Below are positions 11,182-56,700 of a DNA stretch of 64,000 nucleotides, in pieces. The translations under genes were made by a program, and so were the position numbers. Under the pieces are notes generated by a model. The model saw nothing but the letters and a program-made list of their open reading frames with translations. It was not told the DNA's origin and did no database searches. Within the stretch, counting starts at the first letter, position 1; every line of letters starts with the position of its first letter. Source of the stretch: Geosiphon pyriformis uo1 (Eukaryota > Fungi > Glomeromycota); assembly GCA_016748015.1 (NCBI GenBank), contig JAAOMT010000710.1, positions 62,001 to 126,000 of the forward strand. Direction: 5' to 3'.

Positions 11182-11224
11182 TTATAAATCCACAGAGACA
11201 GAGCACCCCCAAAAATACATAAAA

Positions 11225-14200: not shown

Positions 14201-16085
14201 GAGGAACATGCGACAAGGCTTGTCAATACACCATATTAATCAACGATTGGGTACAAAAGGGAACCTCCATCAAGGATGCTTGGAAATGAGCCCTCAACAG
14301 ACTGGACAGTTATCCACATGATGACCACAAAATCTGGAGAATGACAAGCACCAAGGCTGAAGGCACCATGTCCAAAGAAATATGAGAAATCAAGAACAAC
14401 TCTTGGATGCCCAAATATGATAGACCCAACTATTCCGAAAATGATTTCTTTACAGATGACCCAGACACATTTCAGAACTGATATCAGGAATTGGCCCCAA
14501 CTCATAAAGAACAGGAGCAAAGATTGGCCAATTTAAATACCAAACTGTGCGATCACTGTTTGATCCCCTGTTACTTCCAGTACTGTAACAAATGTGATCT
14601 CATGTTCAATCCATCTCCAAGAATACTGTTTCTAATCACTGAACTACTTGAGCCCAAAAAAGAAGTATTAATCACCGAGAACATGTTGTTTCAAGATCCA
14701 ACTGAGAATACCAAAACAGAACAATATCTCGTGTATTCCAACCTATCCAAAAAACTAGAGCTAAAATGGTATAGTGACAATGAAGAAGGAATCTGCCCTG
14801 AAAAAGTGCATGACACCAATGCTGGTTTCGATCTACGATACTCCAGATAATTACCCATTATTATAGCCCCACATTCCTTTGTAAAAATAGATCTTAAGAT
14901 AGTGTTAGAAATTCTTGTTAGTACAATGGTACAAGTTGTCTCTCGATCTAGTCTAGCCAAAAAAGGAATCGACATAAAAGGAAAAATCATCAATGCTGGT
15001 TACATGGGAAACATTATTGTGATGCTACAGAACAATTCGAACAGACCCTATAAAATAGAATCACAAGAAAAAATTGCCCAAGCTATCTTCCTACCCCTAG
15101 TCAAAATACTCCAATTAACTCCAATAACAACTTGAGAAAAGTTAGGCCTCACTGCCTGAGAAATCAATGGGTTTGGATTAAGTGGAAGAGAAAACATACC
15201 AGTTAATTTCTCGGAGGAAGACAGTGACCAGGTAGAATTTATCAACACTGACACCATTATCTCCATTCCCCTATACTGACAATACATCCTCAAGATAAAT
15301 CAAAAGATTCAAGATCAAGCCCTGTTATTCGAAGCCAGTCCCAAAATCTGTTCTCTAGCCAATGTTGCTAATCTATACCTACCAGCCAAAGCTCATAAAC
15401 ACTTCAAAATCTCTATCCACAACTTGACAAAAAATGTCATTGAAATCTCCGAAAGGACCCTCATTGGTTCTATATCTGCAGATATTCAGAATTCTGAAAA
15501 AACCCAGTTTATTCCAAATTTTGCACAATTATTCTTATTCTGTGACATTACTTCACAAGTATGGAATTTCCCAAAAGAAAGTTACTTGTTCACACCAGAG
15601 GAGATCAATAAATTGAATTTAGGAAATTTAAGTATACTGCAACAAATACAACTCAAAGTCCTTCTAAATCAGTATGTTGATGTCTTTGCCAGTGAAAATG
15701 AGTTCGGATGCACTGATATTGTGAAGCATCAGATTGATACGGGAGACGCTCGACCGATTAAGCAATGAGTTTACCGCATACCCCCATCTGGCAATAACCT
15801 AATTAAGCAAAAAGTGTAATGGATGCTTAATAACAGCCTAATCAAAGAATTGTTAAGCCTTTGGTTCTCTCCAGTAGTCTTGGTCACCAAGAAAAACGGA
15901 AAAGTGCAATTCTGTGTAAATTATCGAAAACTAAAATAGCATCATGCGAGGAGATAGTTATTCCACTCCTCTCATCCAGGAAATTCTGGACAATCTAGGG
16001 AAAAAGAAATGGTTCTTGTTATTAGATTTAGCAAGTGGTTACTGGCAAGTTGAAATGAACCCCAAAGACAAAGGAAAAACAGTAT
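11225..16085 (+). pseudogene. Element A gag-pol, 5' part (gag, CCHC, protease, Cys-rich domain, dUTPase, start of RT)
   Basis: KLEKFSGEED capsid start, CYYCQKPGHIACDC, LILDSGS protease, AGFDL/SRSSLA/KIAQ dUTPase motifs, LDLASGYWQV; many stops. Confidence 0.93.
14790..15185 (+). pseudogene. dUTPase domain in element A pol
   Basis: Motifs AGFDL, SRSS, IINAGYMG, KIAQ, GFG. Confidence 0.9.
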
Positions 16086-20100: not shown

Positions 20101-22721
20101 GACCTAGCAATAGCATTAATTAATAGAGCTACCAAAGAAGATGTCCGTCAAATAAAGAAAGCAAAATACATTAAATACATCATGGAATTAGCTGGATTCG
20201 ATTATGAAGATGAAGTAGAAGTCTACCACCAAATTGCAAGTCACATCTACTCAACTCAAGAAGCTCAAATTCAATGATTAGAGCAAATAAATATTAGGTT
20301 ATGTAAAGAATGCATTATGCCTTGTAATGAACAGTGGTGTCCTGAATGCTATGCTCTTAGCATTCTTCTGCTCAGTAAAAACAATGAGAACGAAATTGAA
20401 TTTGAAGAACCTGAAGCAACGAAAAAAATTGAAACAACACCCATCTATCTTGTTGAAAATCAGCCTGTCTTATAACTCAAATACTTTAACAACAATGGAC
20501 AAGGAATCAAACTCGAAAAAGCACACGAAATTGATGCTAGATATGACCTAAGATATTCAGACAAGAATACTCTTGTTCTCAAACCCAAATTTCTCACAAA
20601 AATCAATCTCAAAATTGCACCCGAAATCCCACCAGGAGCAATGGTTCAAATTGTCTCCTGGTCTTTTCTGGCAAGCAAAGAAATCAATGTTAGAGGAGGA
20701 ATAATCAATGGTGGATATACTGGAGACATTACAGTGATGTTTCAAAATGAAACTGACAAACCATTCAAAATCAAACATGCTGAAAAAATTGCCCAAGCTA
20801 TTTACTTACCCCTAATCAACATTTTGGGTTTGCAACTAGTCAATCAAAGAGAACAATTAGGAAAAAACAATAAAAAAACCCAAGATTTTGGTTCAACTGG
20901 ACAATTCACAATTCCAGTTAATATAGCTCTTAACACACAGAACAAATCCCACCAGATTCTTAGACTTCCACAACCAATTATTATCTTACCCTTTGAAGAA
21001 CATCCAGAAATCTACATCTGCCCAAAGCCAACAACCACACAACAAATTTTTGAGTCCAATGAACAAGTCTGCTTGGAACATAATATTTTGATCCCAAACA
21101 TTTATATTCCAGAAGGAACAAAGAAAGTCCAAGTTACTTTTTACAATCCCAATAATTACTCCATAGTTTTATTAAATAATTTAGATATCAGAGTTATTCA
21201 CAGTAATATATTTCAGCAAGAATTACCTCAAACAGTCCCCGATTTTTCTGAAATTATTGGACATTCACTACCAAAAATCAACCCAAACCCCAGCTCTGAA
21301 AACTACCATGTTGTTATGGAAAAACTATTTTGAATCAACATGGAACAACTTGAACCACAACAACAAAACCAGCTCAAAGAGCTAATTGCAGAATTTGCTG
21401 ATATCTTTGCCAAAAACAACAATGACTTAGGAAAAACCGATTTGGTTCAACATTAAATCTACACAGGAGATGCTAAACTGAGATGACAACAAGCCTACTG
21501 AGTTGCTCCAAAAAGCCACCAATTTATCCAAGAAGAAGTACAACAAATGCCTCCATGAGTCCTTGGGCTTCACCTGTAGTGCTAATTAAAAAGAAAAATA
21601 GAAAAATACAATTTTGTGTTGACTATTGACAACTCAACAATGTTACAATTAGAGATGCCTACCCTCTTCCCCAAATTGATGACATGTTAGATGCCCTTGG
21701 AAAATCCAAATATTTTTCAATACTAGATTTAGAAAGCGGTTACTGGCAAGTTGCTATGGATCTCAAAGATCGCCCCAAAACAGCATTTACCACCCAAGGC
21801 AGAAATTACGAGTTCAACATAATGCCTTTCGGATTATGTAATGTACCAGCAATGTTTCAGAGATTAATGGATGTTGTGTACCAAGGACTCTTTTGGAAGT
21901 CAGTAGTCGTTTATCTTAATGATACTGATGTTTATTCTTTATCATTCGAATTACACTTAAAACACCTGTGAAAAGTTTTTCAATAATTATGAAAAGCAGG
22001 ACTAAAACTCAACATTGAAAAATGCTACTTTAAAAAAACAAGCTTGGCCTTTCTTGGTTATATTGTTAGTAAAGATGGAATCAAACCAGACTCTGGAAAA
22101 ATCAGTGCTGTCAAAAACTTCAAAACTCCTCGAAACACTACAGAACTAAGAGGATTCATAGGATTAGCCTCCTACTATCGGAAGTTTATTAAAAAATTCT
22201 CAGAAATTGCAAAACCTTTCAACCAGCTTACCACTAAAAATGTCAAATACAAATAGATTACTGAATGCCAAAATGCATTTAAAATCCTCAAAAAAAAACT
22301 AACAACAGCTTCAATTCTCACCTACCCAGATTTCAGCAACCAATTCTGATTAGCAACAGATACATCTTATACTGCCTTTGGTACTATCCTATCACAACTG
22401 GATGACAATGGAAATGAGCAAGTAATTGCCTATACTAGCAGAACATTAAAACCAGCTGAAAAAAATTATTCTGCCACTGAATTGGAAACAGCAGCTGTAA
22501 TTTGGGCCCTATATCATTTCAACCTTTATCTCCGGCCAAAGAAATTCGATATTATCACTGATAATATTGGACTCAAATAGCTTCAAAACAAAAATACTCA
22601 GCTAAATGCAAAACAAACCTGATGGACAGGATTTCTAGCAAACTATCGATACATAGTACATTACAAACCAGGAAAACTCCACACCAATGTTAACTGTTTC
22701 TCCAGAATGAGACAAGATTAG
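17112..22721 (+). pseudogene. Element B gag-pol (gag, protease, Cys-rich domain, dUTPase, RT, RNase H)
   Basis: YIAKISEFNGE, LILDNGS, GGIINGGYTG/KIAQ/DFGSTG, LDLESGYWQV, MPFGL, VVYLND, ends SRMRQD*. Confidence 0.93.
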
Positions 22722-24158: not shown

Positions 24159-24309
24159 TTTAATTTTACTAGTTATTCCCTTATAATTTAAAAAATAACT
24201 TCACAAAAACAAAACAAAACAAAACAAAACACACTGAAAGACAAAAATAACATAAAAATCTACATACCAAAAATAATTTTAATCTATTTTTCTCACTCAA
24301 ATTTTTATA

Positions 24310-25029
24310 ATGACTATCCCTCAAAATATTCAACAAATATCTCAAAAATTAATGCTAACTTTAAAGACAATACCTGAATTATCTATCACTATTACAGGAA
24401 AACATATTAATTATACCCAAACAGAAATAGTTGCCAATTTAGCCCCAAATTCACAAAATTATCACCCCTACAAAAAAAACACAAAAAGTTACTCTGGAAT
24501 TCAACTACCAGAACTTTTGAAGCTTGCTTTAAAAGAAAATTTAATGTTCACTCCTATTAGTATTCTACCAAATGCTACTATTCAACAAAAACTTCAACTG
24601 TGTCTTAATGAAGAAAACCATGATTATACTCCAATATATAGATATTTCTACATTGGAAAAACACTTCATGAACAAAAACGGGAGCTTACAGCAGCAAACC
24701 TCACAAAAGAAGCTATTCAAAAACAACTTCACAACGAATTCAAAACAACAGCTGGACCTACAAACAGTTATTATAAATTAAGAGCTGTTCTTAGACTTTA
24801 TAACCTATTTCACACCTGTGAAAACGTCTTACAAAACCCAATTTTACAGTCTTTGAAGATTCAATACATTGGAAAGCTCACAGAACTGAAATTTCAACAA
24901 TTTTCAGACCAAATTTCTTCAATAATTTTGGATTATTATCTGGAAATTATGGACAGTACTTGGACTTTGATGGAGCTCAGTCTTGAAGAGAAGGTTATGT
25001 TACCAGACAAAATTAGAGATATTGTTTAG
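24310..25029 (+). CDS. Element B ORF3, unknown protein (probable ancestral stop at 24986)
   Basis: 239-aa open frame homologous to ORF3 of A, C, D and E; the DFDGAQS* end shared with other copies lies in a shifted frame. Confidence 0.8.
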   Translation: MTIPQNIQQISQKLMLTLKTIPELSITITGKHINYTQTEIVANLAPNSQNYHPYKKNTKSYSGIQLPELLKLALKENLMFTPISILPNATIQQKLQLCLNEENHDYTPIYRYFYIGKTLHEQKRELTAANLTKEAIQKQLHNEFKTTAGPTNSYYKLRAVLRLYNLFHTCENVLQNPILQSLKIQYIGKLTELKFQQFSDQISSIILDYYLEIMDSTWTLMELSLEEKVMLPDKIRDIV

Positions 25030-26920: not shown

Positions 26921-28288
26921 ATGAATACACTTACTTATCAACGACTATATTAATACCTATTAACACTATGTTTCAAGGAGATATTATCTCAATAGGAACA
27001 AAGTACCATACAAAAACAAGCCCAAAATTATTTTATTTAAGACAACCAACTATATTGACGAGAACACCAAAACCACCCCAACCCACAATGACTAATCAAG
27101 AACAGTGAAAGAGAAACTATACTATATAGCATGCACTCAGATCTGACTGCAGGACACTTTAACAAAGATGCTACTCTCGAAAGAACACTAAACTTATACT
27201 ATTGGCCAATGATGTACAAAGACATTTTCAAATACGTGCTCAATTGTGACACATGCCAGCAAAGAGGAGGAGCAAGATCAACAGAACCACTTCGACTCAT
27301 TCCAGTTGAAAATCTATTTGATAGAATCGGGATCAACTTGGTTGGACCTCTTTCAATTACATCCCAAGAAAATTGCTATATTATTGTAGCCATAGACTAT
27401 CTTACAAAATGACCAGAAGCCAGAGCAATCCAAGTGGCTGATGCCAAAACAGTAGCCAAATTTGTGCATCAAGACCTAATTTGCCGACATAGATGTCTGA
27501 AAAAATTATTATCTGATTAGGAAACACACTTCGTTAATAATATGCTGACTGAACTAAGCCAATGGTTTAGAATAAAGAGACCCTTATTGTTATTATATCA
27601 CCCACAAACAAATGGACTGGTAGAATGATTTAACAAAACACTGTGCAAAGCACTAGCAAAAATAAGTCATGAAAACAAACAAGAATGGGACTTATTCATA
27701 CTTTCTGTACTCTTTGCATACCGAACATTGAACCAAAATATGACTCAGTTCACACCATTCAAACTAGTCTATGGAAAAAAAACTACATTACTAATTGAGC
27801 GAGTGATACTGTTATACCCAACAGAAACAATCAATGAAGAGAATTTTGAAGCTACCTTACACCAAAGAACATACCAGCTAATGAAAACATTAGAAAACAA
27901 TCGAAGAACAGCAGCTGACAATATTAGTCACGCTCAAGAACGACAAAAAGAAAGACATGATAAACACCTATCAGAACAACCAATGGAATTCAAAATTGGA
28001 GACCAAGTACTGTTACATTATACAAAAGCTGAGAAACAGTGGAGTGAAAAGTTTGACCCAAAGTGGGACGGTCTATTTTACATACATGAAGCATTAGGAA
28101 ATGGAGCTTACAAATTACGATTGGAAGACAGGATTTTAAAGAAAGTAGCACATGGAAATCAGTTAAAAATTTATCATGAAAAACAGGAATTATCATCATC
28201 AATACCTCAACTAGGAACACAAATTTCATTAATCAGACCAGAAGATATACCACAAGATTTGGAACCAATCATCATCATTGAAACGTAG
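26921..28288 (+). pseudogene. Element A integrase (separate ORF)
   Basis: ATG 10 nt after the pol stop; MHSDLTAGH...CDTC, DYLTK, YHPQTNG, KWDG, ends LEPIIIIET*. Confidence 0.9.
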
Positions 28289-28368
28289 ACAATGGGCAGC
28301 AAATTAAATTAGAGAATTCAAATATATATAGCATTCGAAAAGCAGCAAGAAACGATAGAAATTTCAAC

Positions 28369-29103
28369 ATGGACCTTTCAGATCAAATTTTAAAATTATC
28401 TAAACAATTATTTGAAACAATTCAAAAATTGACATTTCAAATAGAAATAACAATTGATAAAAAAGAAATACGGTACAAAGATAAGAACAGGAGAGGGGAG
28501 GACGAGAGTTTAATTAGAACTAAATGTTCCCTTTTCTACCCACCACCCGAAAGGCAATGTTGGAGGAAAAATTGCCTTCAGGCAGAAGGTAGAAAAGAAG
28601 GAAGCAAAAAACGAGAAAAAGGTTACAAAAGAAGATACTTGGTCCCTGAGCTCAAAGAAATAAAAGAAGCTTTAGCTCGTGAGACCAAACTCCTCAAAAC
28701 AGGAGAGTGGACACCTGACAACGTCCTGGAATGGAAAGAAAGACTTCCTCCAGCTTATTGGTTCTACAAAATTGGAGAACAGCTTGATTTGAAAACACCA
28801 TATGAAGACCTCAGCTAGAAAACGTTCAACAAAAAAGCAATACAACAAGTAGAAAAATTCATAGGGAAAAACAATCTGACCCTACATTACAAAGCAATAT
28901 ACTGACTATACGCCACCTTCCAGCATTGCCCAAATGTACTACTAAACAGATCTATGAAAACCATAACGGTTAACAACATAGAATGAATAACCAATCAACA
29001 GTTCAAAGACCTACAAAAGACAATACTTGAGACAACAATCAAACATTACACAAACGAAGCCACGATAACAGATACATACGGTTTTGCAGAAGCTCAATTT
29101 TAA
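28369..29103 (+). pseudogene. Element A ORF3, unknown protein of about 244 aa
   Basis: One frame with three internal stops explicable as transitions; ends GFAEAQF* at the PPT. Confidence 0.8.
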
Positions 29104-29117
29104 AAAGAGAGGAATAA

Positions 29118-30199
29118 TGTTACCTGAGTAGAAAAACCAATCCAAAGTTATGAAAAAACGTGACCAAAATGTGACATAACACAGAATAATGTGCAATAAT
29201 GTTGGATAACGCATTATAACATAGAATAATGTGTTATAATGCAGGATAACACAGAATAGCGTACAATAACGTAGGATAACATGTTATAACACAGAATAAC
29301 ACAGAATAACATGTAATAACATCAGATAACGTGTTATAATATAGGATAACTAGTAATAACGTAAAAAAACGAAGCAATAACAGAAACAACAAAGCAATAG
29401 CTAGTGATAGCAAGACAATTGAAAGCAATTCTATAAAACCAAAAGAATGTATAAAAGCAAGTAATTGTAGAAGTGAGAAAAGACAGACAGATAGATACGA
29501 ACCTCTAGACAAGAATTAAATATCCATACTCCTTTATCCTTTATTATCTTCCCTATTTTATTTCCTGAAATAAACCAATTATTAAAAGAAATCAAAATCA
29601 TGAATTCATGTTTTCAAACTTTGTGGAATTTATGTGAATTAACTCTTGTCTCGTACCTTTATTCTAGGACAGATGCTTTTAGCATAACTGCCTCAAACCT
29701 ATTAATGATTTGAACTAATTGCTTTTGATCACAGCAATTGATAATACTAATTTATCTTTTCTCTTTTTCTTTTTTTTTTCTTTTTTTTTTTCTTTCTTTT
29801 TCTGTCTATTTTGGTGGAGTGGCAACATAGTAAAATTGACTGTCTGGAAATAGACTTTGTGATAGCCTGGTAAAAGAGAGAAGCTTCCCCTAAGTTTTGG
29901 ATATTAACATTATCTTGTTAGCTTACCAGAAGGGCGAAAAGACAATGCCAGACCCTAACGACTGCACTCATTAGCTCAGAGAAGAAAGCTCACATTTATG
30001 AAAAACGTTGCAATTGATGAAAGACAAACTTTGTGCCTTATAACCAAAAAACTCAACGGGTAAATTCACATTCAGAAATAGATCTTCAGAGACTGATAAT
30101 CAAGACTAAAGCCAACAGAATTACGTGGAAAACACATCATTAATAATTGAGAGCACCAAACATTATCATTTCCCATACCCACCAAGTTTACCCATAACA
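29118..30199 (+). repeat. Element A 3' LTR (1082 bp)
   Basis: Direct repeat of 10080-11162; PPT AAAAAGAGAGGAA upstream. Confidence 0.95.
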
Positions 30200-31204
30200 A
30201 CATTTAAATTAGCATTATTTAAGTTTGGTAAAGTTGTTTCTATTAAAATACTGCTAATTAATTTTTATTAAAAAGCTTTGGTTAAATTTAAAAGTTTTAA
30301 AGTTGCTGATTTAATTGTTTTTAAATAATTGATTTCACTAAGAAAAGATTTAATATATATTGGGAAAATTAATACTGATAAACAAATATGGAATTTAAAA
30401 AACTGCTATCATACTTTTTTATATGTTTTGCTAATAAACACTACTGTTTACAATATTTTAAGCTTAATTTTGGCTTATAGTAAGAAAACTTGTTTTATGT
30501 TTTATAATTCTGTCTTTTATATACAAATATATTATATTATTATGTATTTTGAGTTTGTTATAATAAGAATATTACTATTTATTTAACTTCTATTTTTAAA
30601 AACATTGATTTGGTTTGAACTGATTTATAATTTTTTAAATATACTATGTATAAGAACTTGAATTATATTTTAAATATTTGTAAAAATAGTTTTAAATTAC
30701 TTAGTTAAAACTTAAAAAAATTTTTGAATTTAATAAAAAGCATTTTACTTTTATTTATAGCAAAAAGCAGATTTTTATGTCTTGTTTAATTTTTTTTAGT
30801 AATATAATCTGAATTTGTAATAAATAGCAGTTTAAAAACTTTTCTGTTTATATTGTTTTTTAATATTTTATTGGTAGATATGTTAGTCAATAATCTTAAA
30901 GATAGTTTTATTATTTTGGTTTTAATTTTTTAATTTGGATACAATAAAATATTTTTTGAAGCTTTTTTTTAATCATGTTTTCAAGATTGCTTATAAATTA
31001 ATTGATTTTTTATTATTATTATTATTAAATTAAATAATAAATTTATCTATTTCTGTTATTGATTTAATAATAAATATAGCTATTAACAAATTATTACTTA
31101 TTTTTTTGTTTTATATATTGGTTTTGATATCTTTTAGAATTTGTTTTTTAGTAGATTCAAAGTTTTAATTGGCAAAATTAGTGGTCTAAAGACAAATATG
31201 ATAA
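30200..31204 (+). mobile_element. Old LINE ORF1 remnant, segment 3
   Basis: LFKFGKVVSIK...ALVKF...CYHTFLYVL continues the ORF1 frame interrupted at 10079. Confidence 0.65.
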
Positions 31205-33025
31205 TATTATTAGCCAAAATTCAAAATATTATTTAGCATAAAATTATTTTTATAATTTTTACTATTAATTAGCATATTATTATTTTAATTTATTACTTAT
31301 TATTTTATTAAATTATCCAAATTATTATTTAATTAATAACTTAATTTATACAGAACATAAATAAAACCAAATTGTAATAATTAAATTATGTAATATACTA
31401 AACTATTTAATATTCAAAATTTGTTAAAATATTTGGTAATTTAATAAAATATTCAATAGTTTACAAAAATAATTTATAGTTTATAAAAATAATTTATAGT
31501 TCAACAAAATATATTTTTAATTGTTAAAACATTAGAAAAAAAAGTGATAAATTATAAAATAATACTATAACAAATTGTTTAAAAGAAAAGCTTTTTTTTT
31601 GAAAAAATATATCTTAGTTAGAATTCATTTTAATTAAAACCAATATTTTTTTAAATATTTTTTTTACAAATTAACTCAAATAAAACTTACTTAAAAATAT
31701 AAATTTTTTAATTATTTTATTTCGAAATTAATTATTCTATACTAATATTTTAAAATTAATTAGTTACTAAATCCAGTAACTATTAGTAATTTCTAAGCTT
31801 AAATCTAAAACAAATTTCTTAACACATTTTTTATTTCTTTTTTTTAGTTTATTTTTTTTATTTTTTTTTATTTTTTTATTATTGAATAGTTTACAGTCAA
31901 AATTTTTTGTTAAAAAGTTAACTTTATAGTATAATAACTACACACATTTTTAAAAAGCTTAAAGATAAAATTTTTCTGTAAAAAAATCAATTTTTATCAC
32001 AAAATAACTATACAAATAATTAACATAAAATTAGCTATTTTATTATAAGTCTAATAACATACATAATTCAAAATGTAAAAAAATACTTTGAAAAAAGAAT
32101 TAGCTTATCAAAAGTTTATTAACTTTTATTAATAGCAGAATTAACAACAAAACAGTATTAACAACATTAAAAAAAAATAAAAAAATCTTTAGTAATATTT
32201 GGTGCTTTTTTAAAAATAACACAGCAACAATTAAATCAAAGTGGCAATTATATTAGACATAACAATTCTAAAGTACTATTAATTAATTTACATTCACTAT
32301 AAACAATAATTTAAAATTTAAGATAGAATTACAGTTTTTAAAAAACTTTTTTTCAATACATTAAAAACCAAATTAACAATTATTTTTTTAAAAACTACAT
32401 ATTACAGAAGTTAAGTAAAATCTTTTTGAAAATTTCATTTACTACTTAAATAAAAACCCCAAAAAAATTAGTGCTGATATTTGTGCTACTTATTTTAAAG
32501 AACTTAACTACAATATTATTAAGTTTTGTAAAGAAAAGTATCTTGTTAATTTACAATTTGTTTTTAAACTTAAGTTTAAATCCAAAACAAACAACAAAGA
32601 CAAAAAAAACATTTAATCAGTTTATATAACTTTTAACACAGTAAAAGACAACTTTTTAATATTTGCAAGCATCTAAACAAAGAACTAGTTTTAAAATACT
32701 ATTTTTAATTACATCTTTTTTAGCTTTATTTGCTTAAATACAAATATCTAATTTATCTTTTAACCAATTTTTAGAACCAGAAAACTTTATCAAAAGTCCA
32801 ATTTAACAGCCAGAACTAATTTATATTAGCACTAATCTTCTTGATTTTTTAGCAGAAAATTAAAATAAATATTCAAAAATGCTAACCAATAAAAAAACAC
32901 TTCTGAATTTATTAAAAAAACAAACAAAAAGAAAACAAAAAAATAGCAACTTTTTATATTGTAAAAATCTTTGATTTTTTCAGAAAAAACATTAAAATTA
33001 GCTTTTAAAAGTAGTTTGACTTAAA
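31205..33025 (+). mobile_element. Hyper-mutated truncated B-family element (LTR 31205-32197, PBS, start of gag)
   Basis: Colinear with 16086-17920; retains TTTGGTGC PBS and AAAGTGGCAA; most C and G replaced by T and A. Confidence 0.85.
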
Positions 33026-35343: not shown

Positions 35344-35885
35344 TATTACTCATAAAATATAGGAAGTATATATTAGCATAAATTAGCCAATCAGAAGTAA
35401 CCATAGTAAATATGGAATTCTAGGATTCCAAGAATTTCAGAATTCTTGTACAAGGAATTGCAAGATTCTAAGAATTTCAGGATTCCTGGTGTGAAAAATT
35501 GAGGAATTAAGGAATCTCAATTATGTATATATAGTGGTAGAGTTAGAAGTAGAAAAAACAGAACTGCTCAGTTTAGATTTAATCTAAACAATCTTCCAAA
35601 ATTCACAAATATTAATAAATAATTATCTAATATCTCAATCTACTCTTTACTATTAACACTTTATGTTAATAATCTCAAATACTTAACCATACTGGAATAA
35701 TAGCTCTTGATCACAGCTATTGACAAAATACTAATCAGTATTGTCTTGGCTTATTTTTATTTGTTTTCTTTTATTTTCTTTTGTTATTTCTTTTGTTTTA
35801 TTAACTTGATTATAAAGATTCATATATGGAGATACTGATGTCAAGATATAGCACTGGTAAAAAACCCAGAAATAAGGGTAAACAC
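35344..35885 (+). repeat. Element D 5' LTR, first part
   Basis: Matches 62067-62690; CCAAT box about 35387, TATATATAG about 35526; interrupted by C. Confidence 0.9.
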
Positions 35886-36643
35886 TGTTACAGTTTAAGA
35901 ATTTAGAAAAAAGAATCATAAAAATAATACAAACTATTCAATTATAATATAGCACAGTAATAATCTTAGAAAGGTAATGATTAACATAGTAGCAAACACC
36001 ATCTCGCAATAGTGGCAAGCACCAGTTCACAATAGCAGCCAACACCAACTGGTGATAGCAGCAAACACCAGGTTGAAATATCAAAAAGAAAGTATTTTCT
36101 TGTAGAACTACAAACATGTATATATACAGTAGTTTTAATATTGGGAAATAATCAATCAAGTAATAAAAANNNNNNNNNNNNNNNNNNNNTATCACAACCC
36201 AAAGTATTAAGAAACTTACTTGTATTATTTATTGAATGAAACTATCATTCATCAACTGAATCCCTTGGAAGAATAATCCTTGATCAAGATTATTCACGTT
36301 GTTACTAATTGATAAAAGCTTTATTGTGAGAATTAGAAAAGCGCTAAAGACTATTAACATTCTGTGTTTCTAGATTAGAGAAACACATCAGGCAATTGCA
36401 AGAATAGCCTCAGAGAAGACCCCAAACAGTGGGTAGATTTCAGTTCAGCCTCTGAGAAGGAGTACATAAACACACACAACAATCAAGAATTAAAGAATAA
36501 CTTACATTACAACAGTAAAAAAAAAGCCTTCAGTGTAACAGTGACATTATCACACAAATAGAACTGAGGAACTCACAAAAGACTGATTGCAATTAAAGCG
36601 GGATATCAGCAATTAAATATAACAAGAAAACCATCCCGTAACA
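35886..36643 (+). repeat. Element C 5' LTR (contains assembly gap)
   Basis: Direct repeat of 42744-43609; N-run 36170-36189. Confidence 0.93.
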
Positions 36644-36725
36644 TTTGGTGAACCCTACGAGGAAAGAAAATCAAAAAGGAAATAATAATTAGCAATAATT
36701 CATTGCTAAAAAGGAAAAGACAAAA

Positions 36726-39700
36726 GTGGCGACAAAAACCCCTAATCTTACTGTTCTTGAATTCTGCCGTGCTATTTACACACAAAATCAAAGTGATCTT
36801 GGATTACCAGAAGGGTGTTGTCCAGCAGAATCTGCCCTCACTTATTATATCAACGCCAGAATAAATTATCATATAGGAAAGGAAGAAGAACCACACGACG
36901 CAAAACTTGGATTGTATAGAGAATTATCACAATACACTACAAAAGAAGTAGCAGTAATAGCCGCAACTATTGTCAAAATCCATCGAGAAATTGAGCAATA
37001 CGCCAACGAAAATTTTCCAATATCCACAGGAAACACTAGAGAACGCGCCAACAAAACCAAAGAAAATTTAGAAACTAATCAGGAAAGTAACCAGCAAAAA
37101 CTAGAAACACCAGCTCAAATGCCAAAGAAAACTGTCACTTAATCAATAAAGAAACAACGTATTTATTCACCAGAAGATAAATCATACCATTTTTTACCAG
37201 AAAATAAGATACAAATTCCATTAGGAGCTGCATCATCATCAACATCAACTCCACAAATGCCAAGAACTCCTAGTTATATTGATAAAATTAAACAACGTAA
37301 CTGGGGAGACATACCAATTACAGGAGGATATTCATCACTATTCCAAAACCCTCTTTTTCAGCCAAAATTTAGAACGGGGTTTGAAAACCGTGAAGAGGAG
37401 TCTGAATCAGAATCCGAAAAAGAGACCAGCGAAAAAACAATCACAAGACNNNNNNNNNNNNNNNNNNNNAAACTCGTGATCAAGAGGAAGAACCGGATAT
37501 AAGGGAAGCCACCTTTAGGAACGCTCAAGGAAATATTATCCCACCTCCTCTTAGACCAATAAACCCACCAGCAGAAAACGGCAACAAAATGACCACACCA
37601 TACATTGCAAGACTAACAGATTTCTCAGGAGAGGAAGAAGAAACGGACGTGCACACATGGCTCAGAGAAGCACAAAAAGCCATTCAGGCAAATAACTGGA
37701 ATGACCAAAGAGCAATTCAAACATTACTTTTCTTCCTCAAAGGCACAGCCGACTCGTGGTATCAAAGCCTGGAAACAAAACCCACAAGCTTCACCGAATT
37801 TAAAAATGCACTCCTGGAGTATTTTAGCGACCCAAACGCCATAATCCAACTACAGAACGAATTCAATACTATCAAGCAAAATACTGGTGAAACTGTCACC
37901 CAATATCTTGCTCAATTCAATCGAATTCGCCGTCAGATTGAAGCGATTGAACAAGGATACTACACTGATCCTCAGGTTTTAAATCAGTTTATTAGAGGAT
38001 TAAAAAGCAGCATTTTAGGAAGAGTACGCCCTGCCCACCCTAATTCCTTACCAGAAGCCATTACGCTCACCAGAGCCCTTGAATTGGCTGAGAAAGAAGC
38101 TAACCATAGTCAAATGGTTAACATGGTAATGGAGGAAAATAAGACAGAAACATTAGAGAAAAGAGTAACGCGATTAGGGGAGGAACTCTCTAAGAAAATA
38201 GAAAGTTACCTCATCCCGGATCCGAGAAAAAATACATACCAACCACCCCAAAGACGCAGCCAGGAAGTCAGCGACAGTCGAAATAATCGCTCGTCGCGCC
38301 AGGAATTCAGAACAGAAACACGCGCCTGCCATTTTTGCAAACACGTAGGACATTTGATTAGTCAATGTCAAACGCAAATGATACAGGAAGCACGCGAAAA
38401 TAATTATTATGCGCCACCCCAAATGCTCAGAAACCAGTACATGCCAATACCATGCCAATATCCCACCACGTATCAAAATCAAGGAGCTTACCAGCAACAG
38501 CCCATAATAGCCAACCCGAATTGGCGTCCCGAGGCCCGAAATCAGCCCATGTGGAACCAGAATGCATTGGTCCAGAGGAATCCAAACTGTGCCGGAACCA
38601 ATCAGCAAACCAATCCAAACTACCAAAATTATCAACAAACTTACTTTAATATACCGGAAAACCTGATCATCGGAAACAATGATGGTAGAAACATAAACAA
38701 AACCAAAAATTCCTCCAAATTGAGCCAGACAATACCACCAGCAGTTGCCACCGAAGATAGCAGCCTCGCAGCTATTTTTCCTTTTGAATTAGAGGAAAAC
38801 GAGGCTATGTTCAGTGGAGCAGCATTGGACAAAAAACGCCCAATCACTGCTATGTATACGGAAGCCACTGTAAACAATACTCCAATCAAACTTATCTTAG
38901 ACAGCGGATCCGCTGGAAGCATCGTAATGCTTCAACTAGTAAACCAACTAGGTTTCAAAGTTGATCGTGCCATGATGTCCCAAATCATAACAGCCGATGG
39001 AAGTACAAAGCTGCCTTATGGCAAAATCGACTCATTCCCTTTTGAAATTAACGGCATAGTAATACCTACAAAAGTATTAGTAATGGACGCTACACAATAT
39101 CAAGCATTAGTAGGGAATGACTGGCTAACAAAAGCCAACGCCACCCTAGACTGGACCACCCAAGAGCTTCTGATCAATTATAATGGCCACCAGGCCAAAA
39201 TTCCAGCCACTTGTGGCCACTTCCAAAAACCCAGCGCCAACCAAAGACCTACCTTCAAATTTGAGGAAAATCCAGCACTACCAGCCATCGAAACCTATTA
39301 GCTCTCTTGGGCTGATGACCAAAGAACAGGACTACCAGCCGTACCAATATGGACCAGCGAAGAAAGATCCAAATGGAACCAGGTAAGTTCACGAAGAAAC
39401 TACCAGCGACACAGACCAAAGCTAGAATGCTCGGTTTGCAAGAAGAAACTCTTGTCTATGACTGCGTGCAGCGCACCGGACGAAGACCCAAGAAACCCCA
39501 CCCACTACTATTGTAACTGTTGTAACAAAGAAAAATACGGTTACCCAGAAAGACACGGAAAATGGGACGAGAAACCGTGTCTCGCTTGTGGAGAACCATT
39601 ACCAAGAGGGTGCAACTGGAATGACTTACCAAGCAGAGGAGGAACGTGTGACGCAACTTGTCAATACATGATCCTCATCTGTGACTGGGTAAGAGGAGGA

Positions 39701-42324
39701 ATGCTGTTCGAAGCAGCGTTCAACAGAGCGTTAAAAAGACTACAGCACTACTCACACAACGAGGACGAGTTGTACAATACCGCACAAGCCAAAGTAAGAG
39801 GAGGAACCGCCAAAGAAATACGACGTTGGAAAGAGTCAGCCGAAGTAGCCGACGAAGTCGTCAGCTACAACATGTTTGACCCAGTGGACAAATTCCAGGA
39901 CTACTACCAACAACTATGCCCACTCGACAAGAGCAAGAACAATACCTTGCCCAAATCAACACTTACCTCTGCGAAAACTGTCTCATCCTGTGCCAAAGTC
40001 AGTGCTGTGAAGAGTGTTAAGACGAAAGGGACTTAGAAAGAAAAATGGAAATTGAGAATCAGCAGTCTCAAAATCAATCAATAAATCAACAAGACTTACC
40101 TGATGGTCCCGAGTCAGAAAAATTTGTAGCCTATACCGACCTAGAACAGGTGACCAACATCCAATACTTCGACAATAGGCACTTAGGAATAATACCCGAA
40201 AGAGCCTATCCAACCGACGCCGAATTCGATTTACGTTATCCGAAAGACCAATCCACAACATTACCACCCAGGAGCATCACCAAAATCGACCTAAAAATAG
40301 CAGTTGAAATTCCGCCAGGAATAATGGTTCAAATGGCATCGCGATCAAGCCTCGCGAAAAAAGGAATAAGCATTCAAGAAGGAGTAATTGACTCCGAATA
40401 CACTGGAAATTTGATGGTTTTGCTACAGAACAATTCAGAAAAGCCTTATACCATTGAATCTAAGGAAAAGATTGCACAAGCAATTTTCCTACCATTGGTA
40501 AAAATTGGGAAATTCGTGCCAGTAGAAAATTGTGAGGAATTGTCACAAACAACGAGAGGAACTTTTGGTTTCAGATCGACAGGAAAAGAAATTGAAGCGA
40601 ATTTCGCTGATACAATAGAGGAAAAAGACGAAGTAATTAAAAATGAGCAGTCTATTACACTCCTACCATATGGAAAATCAGAAATAAGAATAAAAAGAAC
40701 AATTAAAAAAAAAAACCTAATATTTGAGCCCTACCCAGAAACTTGCCAACAGTTTTTTATAGGACTTACTAACCTTTTTATTTCAGCTGATAAAGCTCAA
40801 TGGATAAAAATTCCTATCGCAAACACCACAGAAGAACCCGTTTACATTCCGGAAGATACTATCATTGGATACCTCAGAACGGAACTAGAAAACGCGTCAA
40901 CACCACAAGAAATTCTAAATTTCCCAGAAATTGCCCTCTACTGTGAACTCACTTCAATAAATTGGCAACAACCGGTAGAATGCTATCAATTTACACCAGA
41001 AGAATTGGCCAAATTAAACATTGGAACAATGGATCCCGACCAACAGCGACAATTAAAAGCATTAATTTTAAAATACTCTGATATATTTTCAAGAAATGGC
41101 GAATTTGGAAGAACCAACTTGGTTTAACACCAAATCCCCACTGGAGATGCCAGACCTGAAAAACAATGCACTTACCGTGTCCCACTAATAGAGCATAATT
41201 TTATCAGAGAAGAAGTCCAAAGCATGTTGGAAAAAGGAATAATACAACCATCAATGAGCTCATGGTCCTCACCAGTTGTTTTAGTAAAGAAAAAGAACGG
41301 AAAAATTAGATTTTGTGTTGACTATCGCAAATTAAACAGCAAAACAACCAAAGACTCATACCCAATACCATTAATTGACGAAATCTTTGACGTTTTTGGA
41401 GGAGCAAAATGGTTTTCTACACTAGACTTGACCAGTGAGTACTGGCAAGTGGAAATGGACCCAAAGGACAGGCATAAAACAGCATTCACAACACAAAATG
41501 GCAATTATGAGTTCAATGTAATGCCATTTGGATTAACAAACGCTCCCGCGACATTCCAAAGACTAATGGACGTAATTTACTCCGGAATCCTGTGGCAATC
41601 CGTTGTAGTCTACTTGGATGATACAAATGTTTTCTCATCAAAATTCACAGATCATTTCCAACATTTACAACAAGTTTTTGAGAGATTGAGACATGCTGGA
41701 CTTAAACTAAATCTAGAAAAATGTTTCTTTGGGAAAAATGAGCTAGCATTTTTAGGACACGTAGTTGGAAAAGATGGAATAAAACCANNNNNNNNNNNNN
41801 NNNNNNNAAACATCGCCAAACCCCTTAATTACCTACTATCTAAAAATGTGAAGTTTGAATGGACTGAAGCACAACAAAAAGCTTTTGAGTACCTTAGACA
41901 AAAGCTCATTGAATCACCAATAATGATCTATCCGAATTTCAACAAGAAATTCATTTTGGCCACAGATGCCTCTGGAACTGGACTTGGAGCCATTCTGTCA
42001 CAAAAAGATGATAATGGAAGAGAACGTGTAATCGCTTATGCCAGCAGAAGTCTCAGTACGGCAGAACAAAACTACACAGCACATGAACTTGAATGCTTAG
42101 CAGTAGTCTGGAGTTGTGTTCACTTTGACACATATTTACGGTACCAACCCTTTGAGATTACGACAGATTATAGAGGTCTGGTCTGGTTAAATAACAAGAA
42201 AGCGCTAAAAGGAAAATACACCAGATGGTCACAAATATTAGTACCATACAATTATATTATCAAATACAAAGAAGGTACCAAAAATGCTAATGCCGACTGT
42301 TTGTCAAGAATGAGACACACATAA
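36726..42324 (+). pseudogene. Element C gag-pol (gag, CCHC, protease, Cys-rich domain, dUTPase, RT, RNase H), nearly intact
   Basis: Long ORFs 37589-39301 (gag and protease in one frame), 40045-41127 (dUTPase), 41224-42324 (YLDD, ATDAS, NADCLSR). Confidence 0.95.
40185..40580 (+). pseudogene. dUTPase domain in element C pol
   Basis: DAEFDL, ASRSSLA, GVIDSEYTG, KIAQ, RGTFGFRST. Confidence 0.93.
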
Positions 42325-42353
42325 AAATCACCAACCCACCCGCCACAACAACA

Positions 42354-42730
42354 ATGAACAACCACCTTTACAAAAACCTCAGCCAATACTTGGAAACACT
42401 ACAAATAGACGAAAAAATGCCAGTAAAAGAGCTAATTAAGCTCCAAAAATTAGCAAAACAACTATCCAACTATTAGAACCTTTCATTGGAAAAACCAACA
42501 CTACATTCTATTCAAAAACAGTTTACAGAATTTTCAAAGCATTTGAAAACTGTCACAAATTATTGTTGGACCCAACCATGAACATAATAACAACCAACAG
42601 TATTGGACGACTTACCAACTTGCAATTTCAAGAATTACAACAACAAATTAATAACACAGTATTGAACCACTATAGTAACTTAGAATTTAATGAAGAAATT
42701 AACTTCGATTTCGACGGAGCTCAATCTTGA
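42354..42730 (+). pseudogene. Element C: integrase N-terminal stub joined to ORF3 C-terminus
   Basis: MNNHLYKNLSQYLETL...KLAKQ, then in another frame FIGKTN...YRIFKAF...DFDGAQS*. Confidence 0.85.
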
Positions 42731-42743
42731 AAGGAGGGAATAA

Positions 42744-43609
42744 TGTTATAGTTTAAGAATTTAGAAAAAAGAATCATAAAAATAATACAAACTATTCAAT
42801 TATAATATAGCACAGTAATAATCTTAGAAAGGTAATGATTAACATAGTAGCAAACACCATCTTGCAATAGTGGCAAGCACCAGTTCACAATAGCAGCCAA
42901 CACCAACTGGTGATAGCAGCAAACACCAGGTTGAAATATCAAAAAGAAAGTATTTTCTTGTAGAACTACAAACATGTATATATACAGTAGTTTTAATATT
43001 GGGAAATAATCAATCAAGTAATAAAAATCATAACTTATCAAGCAATAGATCCAATTTTATCCAACAAACTCCACTTTAAATCATACTTTCAAATTAAATA
43101 TCCCAAGAAACCTTTAAAATCAAAAAGAAATGAAAAAGAATATTTAGAACTGAACTATCACAACCCAAAGTATTAAGAAACTTACTTGTATTATTTATTG
43201 AATGAAACTATCATTCATCAACTGAATCCCTTGGAAGAATAATCCTTGATCAAGATTATTCACATTGTTACTAATTGATAAAAGCTTTATTGTGAGAATT
43301 AGAAAAGCACTAAAGACTATTAACATTCTGTGTTTCTAAATTAGAGAAACACATCAGGCAATTGCAAGGATTGCCTCAGAGAAGACCCCAGACAGTGGGT
43401 AGATTTCAGTTCAGCCTCTGAGAAGGAGTACATAAACACACACAACAATCAAGAATTAAAGAATAACTTACATCACAACAGTAAAAAGAAAGTCTTTAGT
43501 GTAACAGTGACATTATCACACAAATAGAACTGAGGAACTCACGAAAGACTGATTGCAATTAAAGCGGGATATCAGCAATTAAATATAACAAGAAAACCAT
43601 CCCGTAACA
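42744..43609 (+). repeat. Element C 3' LTR (866 bp)
   Basis: TGTTA...GTAACA direct repeat. Confidence 0.95.
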
Positions 43610-46900: not shown

Positions 46901-49900
46901 GGAAAGACCAGAACTAGCCACTACCCCAACATATACTCCATATACTTACTCTTAACCACCACAATCGCATTATTGTTAACCAAAGCTCATTTGCATTGAT
47001 TGTGACAAGAAATTGTCATCAATAGGCACATGCTGTGGCAACAATAAGAAATATCTAACAACAACTAAATTTTATTGCCACCTCTGCATCATTGAATGCT
47101 TTGGAAGACCAAAATGAGTTGGAAAATAAGATAATGAGTTGTGCTTAGCTTGTGGAGAAACTCTCCTTAACAAAAGAATGTGGAACAACATTCTTGGGAG
47201 AGGAAAAACATGCAACAAATTGTGTTAGTACATGATTCTCATCAGCAACTAAGTAAGAAAAGGAACACCCATAGATCCTGCCTGAAGACAAACAGTCAAA
47301 CACTTGGATGAATATCCTTATGATGATAACAAGATTTGGCAAATAGCCTTTGCCAAAATCAAAAGAGCATTACCAGAAGAAATAAGGACAATCAAAAATA
47401 ACCCTCCCAAGTCCATAGAACTTGACTGGGACCCAGAACCAGTCATAAATCTTTTGGATCCAGAACAATTTCATAAGCACTACCAAAAATTGGCACCCAT
47501 CAGAGAAGAGCAAGAGCAATGGTTAAAAGAAATAAACACAAGACTATGTGACCACTGTTTGATCCCATGTGACTTCCAATATTGTAATAAGTGTGATCTC
47601 ATTTATAATTCACCACGTGACTTCCAATATTGTAATAAGTGTGATCTCATTTATAATTCACCACCACACATGATGTACACAATCGCAAAAGAGGACAAAC
47701 CAATTAGCAGCTGTGCATCAGAATTGGAATCAATTTTCAATCCCAATTCAAACTCCAACAATAATGATAACAAAAACAATGGTTCCAGCTCCACTTAATA
47801 TAGCAATAGAAATAACAATGATTCAAACTCTAAAACATACATTGCACTCTCAGATCTCATCAAAGAGCAAGAACTGAAATGGTTTAGCAATAATAGTGAA
47901 GGTATTATGCCAGAACTTGTGTATAATACTAATGTAGGGTTTGATCTGAGATATCCTAGAAAAGATGCCATCAAATTGGAACCACATTCACACACATGCA
48001 TTGATCTCAAAATAGCATTGGAAATCCCAACAACAACAATGGTTCAATTAGTATCCAAAAGTAGCTTAGCAAAAAGAAGAATAAATATCAGAGAAGGAAT
48101 AATTAATGCAAGATATATAGAAAATATTATTGCAATGCTATAAAATGACTCAAAAAAAGTCTATACAATAGAGCCAAATAAAAAGATAGCTCAGACAATA
48201 TTTTTGCCTTTGGTTAAAATAGCTCAGCTAGTGTTAGTGAAAAACAGAGAAAAATTGGGAATAACGGCAATAGGAATACAAGGATTTGGATTAATGAGTA
48301 AAGTAGATATACCAGTTAATATGACAGAAAAAGAGATTATTAACAAAGAAGAAATTATCTCCACCTGTCAACCAATTTCCATTTCACCATATGACTAGTA
48401 TATAATAGTAATAAAAAGAAAAGTAAAGAACCAGAATCAGATTTTTGAAGCAAAAACAACACTTTGTGAATTAAGAAAAATTGAATTAGTTAATTTATAC
48501 ATACCAGCCAAGAACTATAGCCACATCAAAATTTCTATTTACAACAACACAGAAGATATCATCAAGATACCAGAAGGAACCACTATTGGATATTTAACCA
48601 CTGAAATTAAAGACCAACTGCCAAATACTATTCCAGACTTTCCATAACTATGCAGATATGTAGATATCACATCTTAAACAATATACAGATAAGAAGAATA
48701 TTATCTACTCCAACCAGAACAGTTGGAACAGATAAACATGAGAAACTTAGATCTACTTTAATGTATGCAGCTCAAGATGTTACTCAACAATTTCAATAAC
48801 ATTTTTGCCAGTAAAAACAAATTTGGTAGAACTGATATAATCTAGTACCAAATCAAAACTGAAGATATGATGCCAATTAAACAAAGAGCATACAAAGTAC
48901 CACCAGCCAGCCATGAAATCATTTGTCAAAAAATCAATCAAATGCTTGACAATGGGCTAATTCAGCTATCAATGAGCCTATAGTCATTACTAATGGTACT
49001 AATTCATAAAAAAAATAGAAAAATCCGATTTTGTGTGGATTATTGGAAACAAAATAGAGTAATCAAAGAAGATAGCTATCTAACTTCAAAGATCCAAGAA
49101 CTTTTTGATGCTTTTGGAGAAAAAAAATGGTTCTCAACATTAGACTTAGATAGTAGTTATTGGTAGGTAGCCATAAAACTGGAAGACAAGAAGAAAACAG
49201 CTTTTACCACACAAGAAAAAAATTTTGAATTTGAAGTTATGCCATTTGGCTTGATGAATGCTCCAGCCACATTTCAATGGCTCATGGAAATTGTCTATAC
49301 AGGACTACTATAGAAAGCAGTAGTCATATATCTGAATGACACCAATGTGTTCTCAAAAACATTTAATGATTATCTGCATTATCTCTAACAAGTATTTGAA
49401 AAACTCAGATGAGCAGGATTGAAATTAAATGCCAACAAATACTTCTTTGGTAAAACAGAACTCAAGTTTTTGGGACATGTTGTGAGCAAAGATGATATCA
49501 AAACAGATCCAGATAAGATTGAAATTGTCAAGAACTTTCCAGTACCAAATAATCTTACAGAATTAAGAGCATTCTTATGATTTGCAGGATACTACTGCTG
49601 CTTTATCAAAGACTTTTTCAAAATAGCTCAACCACTACACCAGTTCCAAACAAAGAACACCAAATATGAATGGACAGAAATCCAGTAAGAAGCTTTTGAT
49701 ATATTAAGAAGAAAGCTTATTCAAGCTCTAGTACTAATCTATTTAGATCATAGCAAGCCATTCATAATCACAACTGATGCATCTGGTCAAGCATTGGGAG
49801 CAATATTATCTCAGAAAAAACCAGACGGACAAGAATATTTAGTAGCTTATGCCAGTAGAAGCTTAAGTCCAGCTGAAAAAAACTATGGAACTCCAATACT

Positions 49901-53706: not shown

Positions 53707-56700
53707 TTAAATTTGTCTTATTTGTGACAAACTGTTGGCATTTCCATTGTCTTTTCCCTTTTTATAATGTACTGTATAATTGAATAGTGAGAGTTCTATT
53801 TTCTATCTGGCATGGTAATCATCTTCAAATTCTTGCTTCTGAATTGAAGTCAATCCTTTGTAATCAGTATATATATCAAACTTTTGGCTTAAGTATTCTC
53901 TCCACTTAATGACAGCCCAATAGATTGCTAAATATTCCAGTGCTGGTGTTCCATAGTTTTTTTTGGCTGGACTTAAGCTTCTACTGGCATAAGCTACTGA
54001 ATGTTCTCTTCCATCTGGTCTTTTCTGTGATAGTACTGCTTCCAATGCTTCACCTGATGCATTAGTAGTGATAATGAATGGCTTGCTATAATTCAGATAG
54101 ATCAGTATTGAAGCCTGAATAAGCTTTCTTCTTAGTGTATTAAAAGCTTTTTGCTGTGTTTCTGTCTATTTATATTTGGTGTTCTTTGCTTGGAGCTGAT
54201 GTAGTGGTTGAGCTATTTTAGAAAAGTCTTTGATAAAATGGTGGTAGTATCCAGCAAATCCCAAGAATGCTCTCAATTTTGTAATATTATTTGGTACTAA
54301 AAAGTTTTTTACAATCGCAATTTTGTCTGGATCTGTTTTGATTCCATTTTTGTTCACCACATGTCCCAAAAACTTGAGCTCAGTTTTTCCAAAGAAACAT
54401 TTGGTTGTGTTTAGTTTCAATCCAGCTCTTCTTAATCTTTCGAACACTTGTTGGAGATGATGTAAATGATCATTAAATGTTTTTGAGAACACATTGGTGT
54501 CATCTAAGTATATGACTACTGATTTCTATAGTAATACAGTATAGACAATTTCCATGAGTCATTGGAATGTTGCTGGAGCATTTATTAAGCCAAATGGCAT
54601 AACTTCAAATTCAAAGTTCCCTTCTTTTGTTGTGAATGCTGTCTTTTCTTTGTCAGCTAAATCCATAGTTACTTGCCAGTAACTACTGTTTAGATCTAAT
54701 GTTGAGAACCATTTATTTCCTCCAAAGGCTTCAAATAGTTCTTGAATTTTTGGAGTTGGATAGCTATCACCTTTGGTTACTCTATTTAGTTTTCAATAAT
54801 CCACACAGAACTGGATCTTTCTATTCTTCTTCTGAACTAGTACTACTGGTGACGATTATAGACTTATTGATGGTTGAATTAGCTTATTGTCAAGCATTTA
54901 ATTGATTTCCTAATGAATAATCTCATGGCTGGCTGGTGGTACTCTGTACACTCTTTGTTTAATTGACATTGCATCTTCAGTTTTGATCTAATGCTAGATG
55001 ATGTTGGTGCGGCCAAATTTATTTTTGCTTGCAAAGATGTCATTAAAATTGCTGAGTAACATCTTTAGTTACATTTGTTGAAGTGGGTCTAGATTCCCCA
55101 TATTTATCTGTTTCAATTGTTCTGGTTGGAGCAGATAACATTCACTTTGTCTATATATAGTCTGTGATATAATATTCACAAAGCTGTGAAAAGTCTGAAA
55201 TGTGGTTCAGTAATTGCTCCTCAACTTTAGTGGTTAAATATCCAATGATGGTTCTCTTTGGTATTTCGATGACATTTTTCATTGTGTTGTAGATGGGAAT
55301 TTTTATATTTTTGGGGTTCTTGGCTGATATGTAGAGATTAGTAAGTCCAATCTCTCCTGATTCACAAATAGTAGCTTCTGCTTCAAACAACTGAGCTTAA
55401 TTCTTTACTTCTCTTTTTATGGCTAACATATATTGATTATATGGTAAAATAGAAATTGTTTAACAGTTTGAGATAATTTCTCCTTTGTCAATAACCTCTT
55501 TTTCCACCATATTAACTAGTATATCTATTCTATTTATTGATCCGAATCTCTGTATCTTTCTAGCTGTGATCCCTAATTCTTTTCTGTTTCCCACTGACAC
55601 TAACTGAGCTACTTTCACCAGAGGTAGGAATATTGTCTGTGCTATCTTTTTGTTTGGATCTATGGTATATGTTTTTTCTGAGTCATTTTGTAGCATAGTA
55701 ATGATATTTTCTATGTATTTTGTGTCAATTATTCCTCCTCTGATGTTGATTCCTCTTTTTGCTAAACTACTCCTGGATGCTAATTGAACCATAGTTGTTG
55801 CTGGAATTTCCAGTGCTATTTTCAAATCAATGCAAGTGCATAAATGTGGTTCTAATTTGATGGAATCTTTCTCCAAATATCTCAGATCAAATCCTGCATC
55901 AGTATCATGCATGCATTTAGACATGATATCTTCATTATTATCACTGAACCATTTTAGTTCTTGTTCCTTGGTGAAGTTGGGCAGTGCAATATATTGTTCA
56001 GAGTTTGAATTGAAGTTTGAATCTGGGTTAAAATCATTGTTGTTCTGAATGAAGCTAGAACCATTATTTTTATCATTATTGTCAGAGTTTGAATTGGGAT
56101 TGAAAATCAATTCCAATTCTGACGCACAGCTGCTCATTGGTTCGTCTTCCTCTGGAATTGTGTAGATTATGCATAGTAGTGGATTGTAAATGAGGTCATA
56201 CTCATTACAATATTGAAAGTCACAGGAAATTAAACAATAGTCACATAGTCAAGTGTTGATTTCTTCCAACCATTGCTCTTATTTCTCTTTAGTGGATGCT
56301 AATTCCTGATAATGTTTGTGGAATTCTTCTGGATTTAGAAGATATATAACTGGTTTTGGGTCCCAGTCTAATTCTATGGGTTCAGGTGGATTATCTTTAA
56401 TTGTTTTTATTTCTTCTGGTGATGCTCCTTTAATTTTGGCGAGTGCCATTCACCAGATTTTGTTATCATTATGTAGACATCTATCTAAACGTTTGATGGC
56501 TTATCTCTAGGCAGCATCTATGGGCATTCTTTTTCTCACCCAGTCACTTATGAGAATCATGTATTGACACAATTTGTTGTACGTTCCTTCTTACCCAAAA
56601 ATGTTATTCCACATTCTTTTGTCCAGAAGAGTTTTTCTACAAGCTAAGCATGGTTTATTGTCCCATTTTTCAACCCATTTTGGTCTTCCAAAGTGTTCAA

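Follow-up and report, generated by a model that had tools for sequence, protein, structure and literature searches.

Does the polyprotein of a fungal retrotransposon contain a part that no catalogue lists, and if so, what might that part do? The set of parts found in such polyproteins is generally regarded as small and familiar. The question is raised by a stretch of 64,000 nucleotides of the Geosiphon pyriformis genome (contig JAAOMT010000710.1, positions 62,001 to 126,000 of the forward strand; hereafter the window, in whose own numbering all positions are given), where an earlier note made from the letters alone had pointed to a Cys-rich region between the protease and dUTPase of five Ty3/gypsy elements and had not recognized it as a standard pol domain. 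That judgment stands: the region is a real, selected Cys-rich module with no Pfam, PHROG, Protein Data Bank (PDB), Foldseek, or VIA match above noise, and it is an uncatalogued accessory part of one fungal gypsy lineage. We consider it almost certain that it is a functional metal-binding domain.

The domain is about 200 residues long. Each of the five elements (A to E) encodes it in frame with Gag-Pol, and all of them keep the order protease, Cys-rich domain, dUTPase, reverse transcriptase (RT). Profile matches place the copies at 13972–14595 (A), 19732–20355 (B), and 46974–47606 (D, where the end of the third Cys cluster is tandemly duplicated) on the forward strand and at 56198–56821 on the reverse strand (E); the copy of element C, on the forward strand at 39410–40017, is covered by two matches (39410–39952 and 39910–40017), as a one-base lesion near 39918 shifts its last cluster into another frame. 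The five copies score 262–336 bits against a best of −2.3 bits in 10 shuffled windows, scores that are partly circular because the profile contains the window copies; the pairwise identity of 37–69% between the copies is free of this. Every Cys-rich motif listed in the earlier note occurs once per element, where the note had placed it, in all five elements. The length of about 200 residues lies at the low end of the 200–250 estimated there.

Three Cys clusters and a helical part make up the domain, in the order CxxC-x24-CxxC, CxxC-x19-CxxxC, about 100 helical residues, and CxxC-x3-C-x4-CxxC. On the forward strand of element C, a basic, Arg-rich arm (39353–39427) leads into the basic cluster 1 (39428–39523), followed by cluster 2 with its invariant Trp (39578–39661), the helical part (39662–39969), and the acidic cluster 3 (39970–40017), the three clusters being the predicted zinc fingers 1 to 3. 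Zinc binding is predicted from 13 cysteines in CxxC-type pairs that are kept across subfamilies only 37–48% identical. Across the 14 Cys columns of an alignment of 301 segments (257 proteins), Cys occupies 2165 of 2323 positions and Tyr 125, the latter a product of G>A decay. The database protein P0273 retains 13 of the conserved cysteines and has replaced the lone Cys of cluster 1 and a His of the helical part, so the noted motifs CxxCxKKLxxMxxC and AxxRLxxYxHD hold within the window while that Cys and the His of YxHD are not universal. The predicted fold is a helical core with three small zinc fingers about it. AlphaFold2 reached a mean pLDDT of 53 from 6 sequences and of 65 from 65; in the model of the family of element B the first three helices are confident, with pLDDT values of 77–94 (10-residue means), and the fingers are not.

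The domain is part of one Gag-Pol polyprotein of one Ty3/gypsy lineage. Gag and protease share a frame in four of the five elements, and P0273 gives an unbroken reading of 1064 residues that begins at the end of Gag, takes in protease, domain, and dUTPase, and runs on into RT; these two findings together assign the domain to a single Gag-Pol polyprotein. In element C, a stop at 39299–39301 parts the domain from the protease (38843–39211, forward strand); related database proteins and sequencing-run contigs read through both this stop and the lesion at 39918. Downstream lie the dUTPase (40159–40584) and RT with RNase H (41143–42321), both on the forward strand. The linkers on both sides of the domain vary freely in length, whereas the domain does not. 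Reading by eye, we found that both linkers nevertheless keep hydrophobic motifs at fixed places, among them a FEFE-like word that flanks the protease on either side; the motifs are candidates for sites of protease cleavage. Their fixed positions in otherwise variable linkers make release of the domain from the polyprotein plausible; alternatively, it may stay fused to the dUTPase.

The ratio of nonsynonymous to synonymous substitution rates (dN/dS) indicates that the domain was under purifying selection. Between elements D and E it is 0.18 (first 148 codons), compared with 0.24 for the dUTPase, 0.14 for RT, and 0.09 for the protease half. In the other nine pairs the synonymous differences are at or near saturation (proportion of differing synonymous sites 0.66–0.88), and protein identity is still 37–48%.

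Relatives of the domain number in the hundreds, always within such elements, and the named ones that were examined are all from Geosiphon. A word-seeded search gave 30 matches among 415 candidates, 29 from Geosiphon and one a database protein identical to the window's own. The named homologues, all annotated as hypothetical proteins, by themselves make Geosiphon the most likely source of the window. A wider word-seeded search gave 328 matches among 2209, the best 120 of which comprise 119 from Geosiphon and the window's own, and among longer proteins 283 of 7541 matched at E ≤ 10, the best 120 of these 283 all being from Geosiphon. An exhaustive profile search returned 401 representatives at E ≤ 0.001, with 125 new ones among the best 150 of the 401; 20 of the most divergent of these 125 were looked up, and 18 are from Geosiphon while two are records of the European Nucleotide Archive, P0273 and P0369, which are 49% and 44% identical to their nearest earlier match and may come from another organism. 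The taxonomic check proposed in the earlier note covers these best-ranked matches, and relatives in other fungi may lie among the remainder. Of the flanks of at least 60 residues in database copies, 128 of 130 on the N-terminal side and 134 of 134 on the C-terminal side correspond to these elements, and among these same flanks no host-gene context for the domain was found. Pattern scans found no relatives in viral contigs and none among 36 pattern matches in prokaryote genomes, and of four pattern matches in metagenomes all four lie in stop-ridden frames; phages gave matches only at E ≥ 2.

Pfam returned no significant family match for the window copies, for 30 and 65 members of the alignment, for single clusters, or for P0273, and neither PHROGs nor PDB sequences matched the domain significantly. 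Foldseek against the PDB and viral structures gave no rows at E ≤ 0.001. The VIA rows (best Z 6.5, root mean square deviation 2.9, 56 aligned) cover the helical residues 74–139 only, so that the fingers are barely included, and the best ESM Atlas value of 0.76 came with no usable named match and says nothing on absence or novelty. For cluster 1, a PDB row for an ankyrin (E 7e-4) was rejected as no cysteine was aligned. The Pfam and AlphaFold-Foldseek checks proposed in the earlier note therefore yield no confident match to a domain described in gypsy elements. A literature search also found no description of the domain, Repbase and GyDB lying outside that search, so that a curated description may exist.

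What might such a domain do? Our preferred reading, which we hold tentatively and at somewhat below an even chance, is a zinc-stabilized adaptor of the particle that holds RNA or complementary DNA (cDNA) with its basic end and a protein partner with its acidic remainder. The domain would be packaged in the retrotransposon particle with Gag-Pol; the basic arm and finger 1 would bind the element's RNA or cDNA. In the simplest case, the partner of the acidic remainder would be the neighboring dUTPase or the reverse-transcription complex. The dUTPase would then be kept near DNA synthesis, as proposed for the betaretroviral fusion of nucleocapsid and dUTPase (NC-dUTPase), and as it would act where DNA is made, the benefit could be less uracil in the cDNA. 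The model builds on the place of the domain in Gag-Pol, its fixed adjacency to an intact-looking dUTPase, the conserved cysteines, the selection, and the order of charges, basic then acidic. In all four of the least decayed copies (P0150, P0152, P0164, and P0273, from three subfamilies), the 25 residues before cluster 1 have a net charge of +3 to +5 and cluster 1 one of +2 to +6, and clusters 2–3 and the helical part are acidic.

Several observations count against the adaptor. As a whole the domain is acidic in the least decayed copies (isoelectric point 4.6–5.3), unlike a nucleocapsid, and Gag already carries a CCHC knuckle of its own. The decayed window copies A, D, and E have mixed charge and no clean pattern, since E>K and D>N decay blurs it. 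The structural model (mean pLDDT 65, pTM 0.41) gives little confidence in the fingers. An aromatic-aliphatic word, read by eye in all subfamilies 11–12 residues ahead of the dUTPase core, may mark a protease site at which domain and enzyme would be separated. P0273 and the window copies are 37–45% identical in the domain, 50–59% in the dUTPase, and 54–74% in RT pieces, and faster divergence than in the neighbors also fits a host-facing role. Finally, other dUTPase-bearing fungal Ty3/gypsy elements (PosPlaTy3-5 of Postia placenta, and those of Phanerochaete and Tuber) likewise carry a Gag-Pol dUTPase between protease and RT, and the passages of the survey that concern them describe them without a Cys-rich domain between protease and dUTPase; the survey centers on chromoviruses (PMC2864245), while no chromodomain was found here in elements A and B.

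The main rival, which we regard as unlikely while giving it real weight, draws in part on this faster divergence: released by the protease, the domain would act on the host as a chromatin reader or adaptor, either steering integration into repeat-rich DNA or countering silencing by methylation. Acidic fingers and a helical core would suit the binding of a basic protein, and the Arg-rich arm could be a nuclear signal. ADD and PHD histone readers combine a GATA-like finger with a cross-braced PHD finger, and cluster 2 may resemble them; Pfam showed no match to ADD, PHD, CXXC, or MYM models. Pfam likewise finds no chromodomain at the integrase C terminus in the open tails of A and B, where SH3_Tf2-1 is the sole match, yet three of the five elements are nested; this invites the idea of targeting, but where LTR sequence reportedly makes up 41.2% of the genome (PMC11952901), such nesting would be expected to arise by chance. 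The heavy C>T decay, with 98 of 144 inferred CpG sites differing between LTR pairs, also speaks for the rival; nothing, however, ties the domain to this decay or to the lack of a chromodomain, and it is made solely as a piece of Gag-Pol, at a distance from the integrase. The LTR element Cer1 likewise has an accessory protein with Cys fingers that plays a role in the nucleus (PMC10309623). If the domain did counter host silencing, this would bear on why the genome is so rich in LTR elements.

Less probable still is that the domain is a captured, degenerate finger of a known family (LIM, TRASH/MYM, or His-Me/HNH) that has diverged beyond the reach of these searches. Foldseek gave recurrent weak rows for LIM domains (E 1.5–7) and single weak rows for TRASH (E 4.3) and T4 endonuclease VII; the Pfam LIM family PF00412 was matched by one of 65 members (2.7e-4) and two PHROG endonuclease families by one of 30 members each (0.045 and 0.14). 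No match is significant or common to members, and the recurrent LIM rows fit small treble-clef-like fingers rather than family membership. A LIM domain has a conserved His and joins its two fingers by a spacer of two residues, and membership was rejected because the His with its adjacent Cys occurs in subfamily B only and the clusters are 18 residues apart. The spacing of cluster 2 fits the TRASH/MYM-type pattern, CxxC-x19-22-CxxxC; it has no Pfam match, and this finger is poorly modeled. HNH and His-Me nucleases carry catalytic His and Asn between their Cys pairs, and this class was rejected too, as neither residue is conserved in cluster 1 across subfamilies. The helical part resembles generic three-helix arrangements only (VIA).

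Of much the same low probability, if not slightly lower, is a role in counter-defense, directed at uracil handling or host restriction, in which the domain would form a cassette with the dUTPase, for example by mimicking DNA with its acidic surface and so blocking uracil-DNA glycosylase, or as an adaptor for degrading a restriction factor. Viral inhibitors of uracil-DNA glycosylase and of restriction offer the analogy, and the ever-adjacent dUTPase and the acidic surface would suit it. Against this, there is no match in sequence or fold to such inhibitors, and the LTR-pair changes, being strand-symmetric and post-insertion, give no sign of cDNA editing. The bolder version, a new class of released nuclear protein that blocks methylation silencing or uracil excision and so let the lineage fill about 40% of the genome of Geosiphon, an early-branching symbiotic fungus, we likewise think improbable. 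That the domain has no function and serves as a spacer in the polyprotein is very improbable, for although every window copy is broken, this reading is largely refuted by the dN/dS result and further opposed by 13 cysteines kept across subfamilies with saturated synonymous sites and by linkers that are free in length around a domain that is fixed.

The setting of the domain is two nests of decayed elements. Element B sits in the RT of element A (LTRs at 10076–11162 and 29114–30199), and in the second nest element C (35869–43609, forward strand; LTRs 35869–36643 and 42729–43609, 97–98% identical) lies in the 5' LTR of D, and element E, inverted, in the integrase of D. All five are broken by stops or frameshifts, and all five retain paired LTRs, 89–98% identical. 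The 5' LTRs begin TGTTA and end TAACA and are directly followed by a primer-binding-site-like sequence (36644–36665 and 11163–11185). Element C matches Ty3_capsid, gag-asp_proteas, RVT_1, and RT_RNaseH in Pfam, a Ty3-type capsid followed by the enzymes in Ty3/gypsy order, and across the elements Pfam recognizes pieces of capsid, aspartic protease, dUTPase, RT, RNase H, and integrase. The integrase lies downstream of RT in A, B, D, and E and has been lost from C, whose RNase H ends almost at the 3' LTR (42321–42729). The LTRs of C are the youngest of the five pairs (1.4–2.4% apart), and their youth in an element without integrase suggests a non-autonomous copy mobilized in trans. Between dUTPase and RT lies a region of about 170 residues (40621–41124 and equivalents) without a Pfam name and 26–47% identical among elements, which may be a degenerate second dUTPase-like fold. 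Frames of 248 residues in B (24283–25029) and 178 residues in A (28282–28818), between integrase and 3' LTR, are without Pfam match and are possible extra open reading frames. Elsewhere the window holds a decayed non-LTR, LINE-like element with RT and RNase H pieces (2843–9140, forward strand) and a remnant (31204–32993) that shares about 68% identity with element B in its LTR and 5' region.

The five LTR pairs (10076–62930) differ by 318 transitions and 9 transversions, with changes at 98 of 144 inferred CpG sites and also at about 16% of CpA and CpT sites, and among the protein copies E>K occurs 274 times and K>E never. The decay is methylation-driven or of the type of repeat-induced point mutation (RIP-like), on both strands; strand-biased cDNA editing was rejected since the LTR differences are symmetric. 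Contigs from sequencing runs match a span of element C on the reverse strand (37470–40963) in spliced antisense form, crossing Gag, protease, domain, and dUTPase. Nearly all their differences from the window, 61 of 62 in run X2, are A>G or T>C changes, as expected of an undecayed copy of the C family. Ten joints lie between 37613 and 40774, nine of them in both runs X2 and X3 and one in X3 only (two studies; labels uncertain), and the skipped pieces of 68–219 bases can be read, within a few bases of shift, as minus-strand GT...AG introns (chance about 0.01 per joint). None of the six joints inside 38800–40800 occurs in the 5292 contigs of run X1. In the spliced forms, written in window letters, the longest ATG-started frame on the antisense strand is 93 residues, and the contigs are read as a spliced, probably non-coding antisense RNA; they show neither its strand nor its level and carry no information on expression of the domain itself.

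For annotation, the domain adds a part to the list of retrotransposon polyprotein components, gives a marker for this lineage, and explains hundreds of Geosiphon "hypothetical proteins" as retrotransposon debris. Among known folds, the treble-clef class, which includes LIM, TRASH/MYM, and His-Me fingers, is the one that clusters 1 and 2 recall, with a CxxC pair, a loop, and a second Cys pair leading into a helix; unlike those fingers, the domain does not keep the family-specific residues, and there is no significant match in sequence or structure. Among known systems, the betaretroviral NC-dUTPase likewise places zinc fingers immediately before a trimeric dUTPase in the polyprotein, a fusion proposed to carry the enzyme to where DNA is synthesized (PMC4531489), and its nucleocapsid part is a basic, Gag-derived stretch of 81–95 residues joined by frameshift (PMC4531489, PMC1802613). 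The Geosiphon domain, by contrast, is a separate unit of 200 residues, mostly acidic and all-Cys, downstream of the protease; as it contains no CX2CX4HX4C and Gag keeps its knuckle upstream of the protease, a nucleocapsid of the betaretroviral type was rejected. In the Juno LTR retrotransposons of bdelloid rotifers, an extra zinc knuckle also stands beside the dUTPase between protease and RT, there a single knuckle after the enzyme and here three clusters with a helical core before it (PMC5408684). The CERV protein of Caenorhabditis elegans Cer1, likened here by description only, is another lineage-specific accessory protein with Cys fingers that belongs to an LTR retrotransposon; it is translated from a spliced mRNA, whereas the domain described here is carried within Pol (PMC10309623).

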